From: Escherichia coli
GTDB lineage: Bacteria > Pseudomonadota > Gammaproteobacteria > Enterobacterales > Enterobacteriaceae
Length of the DNA stretch: 13,470 bases
Strand: one strand, 5' to 3'
NCBI RefSeq assembly: GCF_003334315.1
Contig: NZ_QOWR01000082.1
Shown here: positions 4,231 to 11,706 of the stretch, in pieces
Layout of the letters: the number at the start of each line of letters is the position of its first letter
Numbering within the stretch: the first letter of the stretch is position 1
The notes under the pieces: generated by a model
The model's database searches: none
Seen by the model: only the letters and a program-made list of their open reading frames with translations
What the model was told of the DNA's origin: nothing
Program-made: the position numbers and the translations under genes

Positions 4231-4418
4231 GCCGGATGCGGCGTGAACGCCTTATCCGTCCTACCGTTCAGGCACAAGTTTGTAGGCATGATAAGACGCG
4301 CCAGCGTCGCATCAGGCATCTGCGCATAACTGCCGGATGCGGCATAAACGCCTTATCCGGCCTACCGATCCGGCACAAGTTTGTAGGCATGATAAGACGC
4401 GCTAGCGTCGCATCAGGC
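4231..4418. repeat. BIME: four REP (repetitive extragenic palindrome) units in alternating orientation
   Basis: gccggatgcggcgtgaacgccttatccgtcctac (4231-4264), tgtaggcatgataagacgcgccagcgtcgcatcaggc (4281-4317), gccggatgcggcataaacgccttatccggcctac (4332-4365), tgtaggcatgataagacgcgctagcgtcgcatcaggc (4382-4418). Confidence 0.85.
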
Positions 4419-4430
4419 ATCTGCGCACAA

Positions 4431-4928
4431 TTATGAAATGATACGCTCCCCGGCACTAAAATCCGTTACGTCCCCCGCCCAATCGATGGGATATAACCCT
4501 CGCGCGACATCGCGATGGAACGTTGAGAATGGCCAATCACTCACTTGCTTTACCCAACCATGCTTTACTGGATTTATATAAATATAATCAACATGATGCC
4601 TATAATCTTTGGTATTGCGGATGGCGTGCTCCCAAAAACGTGGTTGCCAGATATTTTTCAATCCACAAGCATGGGTAAATTGCTTTTTAATTTCCCGCCA
4701 GCGCGAGGAAAAATCATCATCGCCTTCAGGTAATGTCCAGATACAGTGCATATGCTCTGGCAAAACGACCCAGGCGTTGATTTCAAAAGGCCTGTCTCGC
4801 TTAACTTTAATAATGGCGTGACGGAGCATCTGGTACTGGGTGGTCAAGAGTTGGCTTCGACGATTGCGTAAATTCACCGTGAAAAACCAGGTTCCCCCCT
4901 TGATGTAATAACGACGATATTCAGACAT
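4431..4928 (-). CDS. rayT: RayT (YafM), REP-associated tyrosine transposase of the HuH / IS200-IS605 TnpA-like family, 165 aa
   Basis: The 165-aa ORF has the HuH motif (PEHMHCIW) and a C-terminal tyrosine region (YRHHVDYIYINPVKHGW); ATG at 4928..4926; REP clusters lie on both sides. Confidence 0.92.
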   Translation of the reverse strand: MSEYRRYYIKGGTWFFTVNLRNRRSQLLTTQYQMLRHAIIKVKRDRPFEINAWVVLPEHMHCIWTLPEGDDDFSSRWREIKKQFTHACGLKNIWQPRFWEHAIRNTKDYRHHVDYIYINPVKHGWVKQVSDWPFSTFHRDVARGLYPIDWAGDVTDFSAGERIIS

Positions 4929-5022: not shown

Positions 5023-5853
<831 letters not shown>

Positions 5854-8302: not shown

Positions 8303-8436
8303 TCGGATGCGGCGTGAACGCATTATTCGGCCTACGGTTCGCGTACAGATTTGTAGGCATGATAAGACGCGTCAGCGTCGCATCAGGCATCAGCGCACAA
8401 ATGCCGGATGCGGCGTAAACGTCTTATCCGGCCTAC
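8303..8436. repeat. BIME: three REP units between gmhA and yafJ
   Basis: tcggatgcggcgtgaacgcattattcggcctac (8303-8335), tgtaggcatgataagacgcgtcagcgtcgcatcaggc (8352-8388), gccggatgcggcgtaaacgtcttatccggcctac (8403-8436). Confidence 0.85.
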
Positions 8437-8443
8437 GCCAGAC

Positions 8444-9022
8444 TTACTTAACCATCTCTTTTTCAATCAACTGGATCAGGATATGGATCACTTTAATGTG
8501 AATCTCCTGAATGCGGTCGGCATAACCAAAGTGCGGTACGCGAATTTCGATATCCGCCGTGCCAGCCATTTTGCCGCCGTCTTTACCGGTCAGGGTGATC
8601 ACTTTCATTCCCTTCTCACGCGCCGCTGCGATCGCTTTGATCACGTTTGCAGAGTTACCGGAGGTGGAGATCCCCAGCAGTACATCGCCTTCGCGACCTA
8701 CCGCTTCAACGTAGCGGGAGAAAATATCATTGAAACCGAAATCATTACCGACGCAGGAAATATGACTAACGTCAGAAATAGCAATCGCCGGGTAGCCCGG
8801 ACGGTTTTCACGGTAGCGACCGGTCAACTCTTCGGCAAAGTGCATAGCGTCGCAATGGGAACCGCCGTTGCCGCAGGAAAGCACTTTGCCACCGGCTTTA
8901 AAGCTGTCTGCTAACAGGACCGCCGCGCGCTGAATGGCGTGAATATTGGCGTCATCTTTTAAAAAGTTAGCCAGCGTTTCCGCCGCTTCGTTCAGTTCGT
9001 TACGAATAAGATCCTGGTACAT
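8444..9022 (-). CDS. gmhA: GmhA (LpcA), sedoheptulose-7-phosphate isomerase (SIS domain), 192 aa
   Basis: [20 protein letters not shown]...[18 protein letters not shown] matches GmhA; ATG at 9022..9020 with an AAGGA Shine-Dalgarno. The track ORF is extended 11 codons from an upstream TTG. Confidence 0.95.
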
Positions 9023-9223
9023 GAGGATATCCTTCAGCATAAATGTAATAGACAAAATGCAGTGTACCGGATACCGCCAAAAGCGAGAAGTACGGGCAGG
9101 TGCTATGACCAGGACTTTTTGACCTGAAGTGCGGATAAAAACAGCAACAATGTGAGCTTTGTTGTAATTATATTGTAAACATATTGCTAAATGTTTTTAC
9201 ATCCACTACAACCATATCATCAC

Positions 9224-9240
9224 AAGTGGTCAGACCTCCT
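9224..9240. promoter_or_regulatory. FadR operator in the fadE promoter
   Basis: aagtggtcagacctcct contains the TGGTCnGACCT core of FadR operators and lies about 25-40 bp upstream of the fadE ATG. Confidence 0.65.
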
Positions 9241-9261
9241 ACAAGTAAGGGGCTTTTCGTT

Positions 9262-11706
9262 ATGATGATTTTGAGTATTCTCGCTACGGTTGTCCTGCTC
9301 GGCGCGTTGTTCTATCACCGCGTGAGCTTATTTATCAGCAGTCTGATTTTGCTCGCCTGGACAGCCGCCCTCGGCGTTGCTGGTCTGTGGTCGGCGTGGG
9401 TACTGGTGCCTCTGGCCATTATCCTCGTGCCATTTAACTTTGCGCCTATGCGTAAGTCGATGATTTCCGCGCCGGTATTTCGCGGTTTCCGTAAGGTGAT
9501 GCCGCCGATGTCGCGCACTGAGAAAGAAGCGATTGATGCGGGCACCACCTGGTGGGAGGGCGACTTGTTCCAGGGCAAGCCGGACTGGAAAAAGCTGCAT
9601 AACTATCCGCAGCCGCGCCTGACCGCCGAAGAGCAAGCGTTTCTCGACGGCCCGGTAGAAGAAGCCTGCCGGATGGCGAATGATTTCCAGATCACCCATG
9701 AGCTGGCGGATCTGCCGCCGGAGTTGTGGGCGTACCTTAAAGAGCATCGTTTCTTCGCGATGATCATCAAAAAAGAGTACGGCGGGCTGGAGTTCTCGGC
9801 TTATGCCCAGTCTCGCGTGCTGCAAAAACTCTCCGGCGTGAGCGGGATCCTGGCGATTACCGTCGGCGTGCCAAACTCATTAGGCCCGGGCGAACTGTTG
9901 CAACATTACGGCACTGACGAGCAGAAAGATCACTATCTGCCGCGTCTGGCGCGTGGTCAGGAGATCCCCTGCTTTGCACTGACCAGCCCGGAAGCGGGTT
10001 CCGATGCGGGCGCGATTCCGGACACCGGGATTGTCTGCATGGGCGAATGGCAGGGCCAGCAGGTGCTGGGGATGCGTCTGACCTGGAACAAACGCTACAT
10101 TACGCTGGCACCGATTGCGACCGTGCTTGGGCTGGCGTTTAAACTCTCCGACCCGGAAAAATTACTCGGCGGTGCAGAAGATTTAGGCATTACCTGTGCG
10201 CTGATCCCAACCACCACGCCGGGCGTGGAAATTGGTCGTCGCCACTTCCCGCTGAACGTACCGTTCCAGAACGGACCGACGCGCGGTAAAGATGTCTTCG
10301 TGCCGATCGATTACATCATCGGCGGGCCGAAAATGGCCGGGCAAGGCTGGCGGATGCTGGTGGAGTGCCTCTCGGTAGGCCGCGGCATCACCCTGCCTTC
10401 CAACTCAACCGGCGGCGTGAAATCGGTAGCGCTGGCAACCGGCGCGTATGCTCACATTCGCCGTCAGTTCAAAATCTCTATTGGTAAGATGGAAGGGATT
10501 GAAGAGCCGCTGGCGCGTATTGCCGGTAATGCCTACGTGATGGATGCTGCGGCATCGCTGATTACCTACGGCATTATGCTCGGCGAAAAACCTGCCGTGC
10601 TGTCGGCTATCGTTAAGTATCACTGTACCCACCGCGGGCAGCAGTCGATTATTGATGCGATGGATATTACCGGCGGTAAAGGCATTATGCTCGGGCAAAG
10701 CAACTTCCTGGCGCGTGCTTACCAGGGCGCACCGATTGCCATCACCGTTGAAGGGGCTAACATTCTGACCCGCAGCATGATGATCTTCGGACAAGGAGCG
10801 ATTCGTTGCCATCCGTACGTGCTGGAAGAGATGGAAGCGGCGAAGAACAATGACGTCAACGCGTTCGATAAACTGTTGTTCAAACATATCGGTCACGTCG
10901 GTAGCAACAAAGTTCGCAGCTTCTGGCTGGGCCTGACGCGCGGTTTAACCAGCAGCACGCCAACCGGCGATGCCACTAAACGCTACTATCAGCACCTGAA
11001 CCGCCTGAGCGCCAACCTCGCCCTGCTTTCTGATGTCTCGATGGCAGTGCTGGGCGGCAGCCTGAAACGTCGCGAGCGCATCTCGGCCCGTCTGGGGGAT
11101 ATTTTAAGCCAGCTCTACCTCGCCTCTGCCGTGCTGAAGCGTTATGACGACGAAGGCCGTAATGAAGCCGACCTGCCGCTGGTGCACTGGGGCGTACAAG
11201 ATGCGCTGTATCAGGCTGAACAGGCGATGGATGATTTACTGCAAAACTTCCCGAACCGCGTGGTTGCCGGGCTGCTGAATGTGGTGATCTTCCCGACCGG
11301 ACGTCATTATCTGGCACCTTCTGACAAGCTGGATCATAAAGTGGCGAAGATTTTACAAGTGCCGAACGCCACCCGTTCCCGCATTGGTCGCGGTCAGTAC
11401 CTGACGCCGAGCGAGCATAATCCGGTTGGCTTGCTGGAAGAGGCGCTGGTGGATGTGATTGCCGCCGACCCAATTCATCAGCGGATCTGTAAAGAGCTGG
11501 GTAAAAACCTGCCGTTTACCCGTCTGGATGAACTGGCGCACAACGCGCTGGTGAAGGGGCTGATTGATAAAGATGAAGCCGCTATTCTGGTGAAAGCTGA
11601 AGAAAGCCGTCTGCGCAGTATTAACGTTGATGACTTTGATCCGGAAGAGCTGGCGACGAAGCCGGTAAAGTTGCCGGAGAAAGTGCGGAAAGTTGAAGCC
11701 GCGTAA
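9262..11706 (+). CDS. fadE: FadE, acyl-CoA dehydrogenase of fatty-acid beta-oxidation, 814 aa
   Basis: Long ORF with an N-terminal membrane-anchor-like region ([17 protein letters not shown]...) and acyl-CoA dehydrogenase domains. The start is taken at ATG 9262 (814 aa) rather than the track ATG at 9184, because the FadR operator at 9224-9240 falls inside the extension. Confidence 0.95.

Follow-up and report, generated by a model that had tools for sequence, protein, structure and literature searches.

The TGTGA motif in the intergenic region between gmhA and fadE of Escherichia coli is a real, deeply conserved element at a class I position relative to the predicted fadE promoter. It lies directly upstream of an operator for ArcA-P, the first repeat of which had been taken for the second half of a CRP site. 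We propose, tentatively and at slightly less than an even chance, that TGTGA is a low-affinity class I CRP site with a single half-site, which ArcA repeat 1 overlaps. The product of fadE is the acyl-CoA dehydrogenase of the first oxidative step in beta-oxidation, and its promoter is the least studied in the fad regulon. A 2022 review (PMC9329746) treats the fadE start site, the geometry of repression by FadR and ArcA, and the choice between direct and indirect catabolite control all as unresolved. With its five invariant bases, TGTGA gives the question of whether CRP acts directly on fadE a precise target.

The region is part of a 13,470-nucleotide stretch of E. coli DNA, referred to here as the window, which belongs to the core chromosome and runs in the reverse orientation compared to K-12. 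The earlier note was right to describe a divergent control region of 239 bp at 9023-9261. gmhA runs leftwards, the last base of its start codon (CAT on the plus strand) being at 9022, and fadE runs rightwards from an ATG read from the sequence at 9262; the RefSeq annotation of identical DNA names these genes lpcA (gmhA) and fadE. The spacer is identical at every base to K-12 MG1655 243304-243542, so that a K-12 coordinate equals 252565 minus the window coordinate, and it is present at 95% identity or more in 5,424 of 5,426 complete E. coli genomes. It is a tightly packed fadE control region with the gmhA promoter at its far end (Table 1). An 840-residue open reading frame from a TTG at 9184 (9184-11706) was rejected as a gene of its own, as it is an in-frame upstream extension of fadE that overlaps the promoter, and the annotated start is the ATG at 9262. 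An Rfam search found no RNA family within the spacer.

Table 1 Features of the gmhA-fadE intergenic region, in window coordinates.
Feature	Position	Strand	Basis
gmhA (lpcA)/fadE divergent intergenic region, 239 bp	9023-9261		Sequence, annotation, K-12 identity
gmhA proximal promoter: -35 TTCTCG (9089-9084), 17-bp spacer, -10 TACACT (9066-9061)	9061-9089	-	
Proposed PdhR/LldR secondary "consensus-2" box tccTGGTcatAgCAccT	9099-9115	-	PMC7660256, PMC10272880
CRP-like TGTGA-GCTTTG-TTGTA, composite of invariant TGTGA and ArcA repeat 1	9151-9166	+	
Invariant TGTGA, candidate single CRP half-site	9151-9155	+	Conserved in 79/79 spacers
ArcA-P operator, three direct repeats with 11-bp spacing: DR1 9162, DR2 9173, DR3 9184	9162-9193	+	
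Minor distal gmhA start, inside ArcA repeat 1	9165	-	Kim 2012: K-12 243400, 15 reads, lpcA
Predicted fadE -35 hexamer TTGCTA, overlapping ArcA DR3	9184-9189	+	Shimada 2014 prediction, conservation
Predicted fadE -10 hexamer TACAAC, weak, without final T; implied start about 9219	9207-9212	+	
FadR operator AAGTGGTCAGACCTCCT; also LldR gSELEX box	9224-9240	+	Core match, conservation, literature
fadE Shine-Dalgarno AAGGGG, 9 nt before ATG	9247-9252	+	Read from sequence

Park 2013 (Tables S1, S3 and S4) lists at fadE an ArcA box of three repeats 11 bp apart at K-12 243372-243403, with the sequence ttgtaattatattgtaaa and a score of 18 bits. The same study reports ChIP-seq peaks of ArcA at K-12 243344 and 243375, and fadE expression 17.5-fold up in an arcA mutant. 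The published interval maps to 9162-9193 of the window. We rebuilt an ArcA matrix from 114 of the Park 2013 boxes with fadE left out, using an 18-bp box and a threshold of at least 9 bits. With 18.1 bits, 9162-9179 is the top match anywhere in the window and falls at the 76th percentile of known boxes, and the second-best is the overlapping 9173-9190, at 13.8 bits; both consist of two repeats at 11-bp spacing and lie above the threshold. The box reaches at least 11.3 bits in every one of 79 species, among which DR2 differs (TGTAA, TGTGA or TGTTA), and an arcA mutant of Klebsiella has higher fadE expression (PMC10653796). Since the repeats defined by ChIP-seq and the top matrix matches start at 9162 and 9173, TTGTA (9162-9166) is the start of ArcA repeat 1. 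The 16-bp CRP-like element thus does not stand as a CRP site of its own, and what remains is TGTGA, to which the literature searched assigns no function. The element had been placed correctly in the earlier note, as 9151-9166 indeed reads TGTGA-GCTTTG-TTGTA, and a degenerate CRP site had been suggested for it; what was overlooked is that its TTGTA half is repeat 1 of an ArcA site.

As a complete CRP site, the sequence TGTGAgctttgTTGTA could not be upheld: it fails the matrix test that the earlier note itself had set. On a symmetrised matrix from 149 gSELEX 16-mers (Shimada 2011, Table S3) it scores -0.07 bits, below the range of known sites, and ArcA accounts for its TTGTA half. All but one of the 149 gSELEX sites outscore it (5th percentile 3.0 bits, median 11.2 bits), it ranks 296th of 13,455 positions in the window, and about 2% of window positions picked arbitrarily reach its score. 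The two halves are very unequal, with +7.3 bits for the left six bases (a consensus half has 9.1) and -7.9 bits for the right six. Box position 4 carries its G and position 13 a T, and two of the five positions match in the right half; a C at position 13 is key to CRP affinity (Shimada 2011). Matches to TGTGA-N6-TCACA with up to three mismatches number 44 in the window, compared to 40 expected. Across the 79 species the element never exceeds 1.5 bits, so that drift towards a stronger CRP site is seen in none of the lineages. The classical galE CRP site has 1.7 bits on this gSELEX matrix and the trg site -1.1 bits. The CRP-like element is thus unremarkable by sequence statistics alone and more than chance by conservation.

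The binding records agree with the low score. The CRP gSELEX table (Shimada 2011) has no peak from K-12 228450 to 268510, the Crp ChIP-exo supplement has no entry for fadE, and fadE is not among the entries consulted in the 2011 RegulonDB CRP list. PMC9329746 describes no CRP site at fadE and notes that control by CRP has yet to be investigated there. Both gSELEX and ChIP-exo miss many weak CRP sites, and the gSELEX study recovered 92 of 195 known CRP targets.

The case for TGTGA comes from comparative data. A scan of one genome per species gave the 80 closest fadE loci, ranging from Escherichia to Yersinia, Serratia, Hafnia and Pantoea, and from these we aligned 79 Enterobacterales spacers with 64 distinct element segments. 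The matches listed by a protein search aimed at more distant taxa, such as Vibrio and Proteus, were all from Enterobacteriaceae. gmhA is divergent from fadE in all 78 loci that reach far enough upstream of fadE, with spacers of 208-256 bp save for one of 574 bp. Invariant columns make up 43 of the 239 in the alignment, and the longest invariant runs are TGTGA (9151-9155), GTTGTAA (9161-9167) and the FadR core, GGTC plus GACCTC. TGTGA and GTTGTAA are present at fixed spacing in all 79 spacers, while the five bases between them are free to vary (GCTTT, ACCAG, GCAAG, GATGA and others). The stretch 9146-9195 is free of insertions and deletions in these spacers. Within Escherichia, substitutions are found at 9158, 9159, 9160, 9170, 9171, 9180, 9182 and 9232, all of them in the spacers of the three elements and none in their cores. 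The single long spacer belongs to Mixta sp. Marseille-Q2659 and has about 330 extra bases adjoining the gmhA end; its fadE-proximal module is intact from TGTGA to the FadR operator.

The fadE promoter predicted by Shimada 2014 is TTGCTA-17-TACAAC. In the alignment, TTG(C/A)TA-17-TA(C/A)A(A/C)C is conserved from Escherichia to Yersinia, Serratia, Pantoea and Hafnia. The upstream hexamer, TTG(C/A)TA with its 17-bp spacer, was recovered by pattern in 75 spacers and by eye in the remaining four, and T9207, A9208 and A9210 of the -10 hexamer are invariant in all 79. The missing final T of this hexamer is as expected for an activator-dependent promoter. A consensus promoter scan of 8800-9500 passed no candidate, TTGCTA-17-TACAAC being too weak for the scan, and no fadE-strand start was found in the Cappable-seq and Kim 2012 tables. 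With the predicted start at about 9219, ArcA would span -57 to -26 and FadR +6 to +22, the third ArcA repeat falling on the -35 hexamer. ArcA on the -35 hexamer and FadR just after the predicted start together give a coherent promoter model, which would resolve the puzzle raised in the review of two distant repressor sites. A FadR operator just downstream of the predicted start also fits the statement in PMC9329746 that the FadR site overlaps a start site seen by dRNA-seq. A different fadE start, at about 9159, follows from Table S6 of Park 2013, where the ArcA site is given as +4 to +35. We are highly confident of the layout of ArcA, FadR and promoter given here.

This layout sets the position of TGTGA. 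The -35 hexamer begins 25.5 bp from the centre of the CRP-like element (9158.5), and the same distance, read from K-12 DNA, separates the CRP site centre of lac P1 from its -35. Relative to the predicted fadE start the centre is at -60.5 or -61.5, within the range of class I/II positions; among the RegulonDB entries consulted, class I CRP sites at -59.5 to -62.5 include those of fadD, nanA, mdh and hlyE. The fad regulon is catabolite-repressed and has direct CRP sites at fadL, fadD, fadH and fadIJ (PMC9329746). The lac-like distance, the class I position, the invariance of TGTGA and the catabolite repression of the regulon together lead us to favour the half-site CRP reading.

In this mechanism, cAMP-CRP would occupy a site in which only the TGTGA half is specific and whose centre is about 60.5-61.5 bp before the predicted fadE start. 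CRP would bind at high cAMP levels, once acyl-CoA has released FadR and while ArcA is unphosphorylated, and would then help RNA polymerase to use a promoter with the weak -10 hexamer TACAAC. When oxygen is low, ArcA-P would occupy the -35, the A/T-rich stretch leading up to it and the promoter-proximal half of the CRP site, so that repression by ArcA and activation by CRP would be mutually exclusive. A possible extension, which we hold with more reserve than the half-site itself, is that TGTGA, together with the adjoining ArcA repeat 1, makes up a carbon/redox switch conserved across all Enterobacterales, in which CRP binds a deliberately half-strength site only when ArcA-P is absent. If true, signals from cAMP, oxygen and acyl-CoA would come together at fadE within about 90 bp, and the switch would supply the direct CRP input that fadE has lacked, which the 2022 review poses as an open question. 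Against the CRP step stands the fact that CRP does not explain the invariant G9161 and TTGTAA.

Comparison with known promoters shows both precedents and differences. lac P1, a class I CRP-dependent promoter, resembles fadE in having the TGTGA half promoter-distal and an imperfect core promoter at the distance given above. It differs in its good second half, TCACT, and its strong gSELEX hit, whereas the second half at fadE is anti-consensus and has no recorded CRP binding; the spacer between -35 and -10 is 18 bp at lac P1 and 17 bp at fadE. The CRP site of galE P1, TTTATtccatgTCACA, like the fadE element combines one near-perfect with one very poor half-site, and its halves of -6.1 and +7.8 bits are the mirror image of those at fadE. 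The low score of galE shows that such half-and-half CRP sites can function. However, galE is a class II site at -41.5 with direct biochemical evidence, its good half is the one nearer the promoter, and CRP is stabilised there by contacts with polymerase. At paaA, ArcA repeats overlap a CRP site and give combined carbon and redox control (Park 2013), as in the fadE candidate, although the paaA CRP site, TGCGAAATCCGTCACA, is conventional and gSELEX-positive. The fadD, fadL, fadH and fadIJ promoters belong to the same regulon as fadE and follow the same logic of FadR, ArcA and CRP. The CRP site of fadD, at -59.5, has 10.1 bits, far above the fadE element, and that of fadL, AGTGACCGAAATCACA, is a gSELEX hit, whereas none has been described at fadE.

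The main rival to the half-site CRP reading is that TGTGA is a fourth, auxiliary ArcA repeat upstream of DR1, making 9150-9193 one extended ArcA-P operator with no role for CRP. This has some appeal, since ATGTGAG scores 3.25 bits on a single-repeat ArcA matrix, near the 4.09 bits of the accepted DR3, and TGTGA forms the repeat core in several ArcA boxes from ChIP-seq (rcsD, mglB and sdhC2). ArcA sites carry three to five repeats in over half of cases, and footprints extend over 30-60 bp (Park 2013). The spacing speaks against it, as TGTGA is 12 bp from DR1 instead of 11, and a repeat at 12-bp spacing in putP was unprotected (Park 2013); the multi-repeat search in the same study called just three repeats at fadE. 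Moreover, none of the 64 distinct sequences has the stronger TGTTA or TGTAA in place of TGTGA, though DR2 varies, and the lac-like register would be left unexplained. We consider a fourth repeat unlikely.

Similarly improbable is that TGTGA is read by another factor, or that it is the end of a -10 element of the form nAnnnT (9146-9151) followed by a discriminator, with transcription starting at about 9158-9159. An upstream start of this kind would agree with the one implied by Table S6 of Park 2013, and A9147 and T9151 of the -10-like pattern are conserved in most species. Such a promoter would nevertheless be without a usable -35, as TTGACC at 9119-9124 is 21 bp away and the consensus scan found nothing, and the -10 element accounts for T9151 and not for the invariant GTGA. 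The start tables of Cappable-seq and Kim 2012 are equally silent on it for the fadE strand, and the dRNA-seq start in PMC9329746 is overlapped by the FadR site. A further protein is suggested by the invariant G9161, which fits neither the CRP nor the ArcA matrix; indeed none of the CRP, ArcA or -10-like models explains this base.

All candidates for such a protein whose consensus sequences were compared with the element failed. At TGTGA, a sigma-54 -24/-12 element would have neither its GG nor its GC. A LacI-type half-site is matched by TGTGAGC, which resembles the left arm of lacO, and the symmetric partner is absent. A PhoP box on the minus strand is at the wrong position, CpxR repeats (GTAAA-N5-GTAAA) have a spacing of 11 bp and not 10, and a TyrR box has the wrong spacing and is not conserved. 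A site TGTGA-N5-GTTGTAA for a regulator not yet linked to fadE is less likely than the switch described above.

Still more doubtful is a conventional degenerate CRP operator in which TGTGA and TTGTA are both contacted by CRP. The N6 spacing is correct, one half-site is perfect and the flanks are A/T-rich, but the right half is worse than random and is explained by ArcA DR1, the total score is under the threshold, and the gSELEX and ChIP-exo tables show no binding in the spacer. ArcA repeats also recurrently yield poor-scoring "CRP" annotations, as at lpd, acnB, cyoA and glcC. Finally, a functionless chance resemblance, which the sequence statistics by themselves would allow, is effectively refuted by conservation, since TGTGA is among the longest invariant runs and is unchanged in 79 of 79 spacers amid freely varying bases and only 43 invariant columns of 239.

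The FadR operator at 9224-9240 was correctly identified in the earlier note and is already known: the segment reads AAGTGGTCAGACCTCCT, the site given for fadE in the literature, which PMC9329746 credits to Campbell and Cronan 2002. It is a 17-bp imperfect palindrome just after the predicted promoter with an exact TGGTCNGACC-type core. This core, here TGGTCAGACC, occurs once in the window, compared to 0.06 expected. The full 17-mer has four mismatches to the textbook FadR consensus AACTGGTCNGACCAGTT, and a search for that consensus with up to three mismatches gave no match. GGTC and GACCTC of the operator are invariant in all 79 spacers. The sole operator position that varies within Escherichia (A or G) is 9232, the central N of the core TGGTC-N-GACC. 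The reverse complement of AAGTGGTCAGACCTCCT is also listed as a box in the fadE/gmhA spacer in the gSELEX study of LldR (PMC10272880). Downstream of the operator, the Shine-Dalgarno sequence of fadE is mostly conserved across the aligned spacers. A terminator-like hairpin at 9236-9252 was rejected, as it arises from base pairing between the fadE ribosome-binding site and the right arm of the FadR operator. Folding of 9219-9285 was no better than that of shuffled sequences (z = 0.52), and a structure hiding the ribosome-binding site was therefore dropped.

On the opposite strand, the main gmhA start is at 9053 (Cappable-seq, K-12 243512, relative score 95), and a weaker one is seen at 9035. The hexamers TTCTCG and TACACT of the proximal promoter are conserved from Escherichia to Yersinia and Pantoea. 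The CRP-like element is about 105 bp upstream of the main gmhA start, which indicates that it belongs functionally to fadE. The minor distal gmhA start likely uses TACAAT (9177-9172) as its -10. Most other genera replace the bases required for this hexamer (TTTTGTAA), so that the distal start should be mainly confined to Escherichia. As this start is inside ArcA repeat 1, ArcA might also affect the minor gmhA transcript. A hairpin at the 5' end of that transcript (CAACAA/TTGTTG around TGTGA) was discarded, being not conserved outside Escherichia. The PdhR/LldR box tccTGGTcatAgCAccT is in the least conserved part of the spacer, differing even within Escherichia and not conserved beyond it, which gives weak comparative support for a conserved function.

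Two observations extend beyond this promoter. The RegulonDB "CRP" sites of lpd, acnB, cyoA (-37.5), glcC and csgD (-42.5) look like ArcA direct repeats, and they score from -6.6 to +0.3 bits on the gSELEX matrix (sites from Shimada 2011, Table S4). These annotations may perhaps be mis-assigned; ArcA repeats such as TGTTA and TGTAA mimic degenerate CRP half-sites and probably explain several poor-scoring RegulonDB "CRP" entries. Elsewhere in the window, Rfam family RF02564 (naRNA4, a REP-type repeat) has three matches on the minus strand, at 4285-4362, 5027-5104 and 8356-8433, with 74-78 bits. Two of them flank a 165-residue open reading frame on the minus strand (4431-4928), which is at the place of rayT/yafM in the K-12 gene order.
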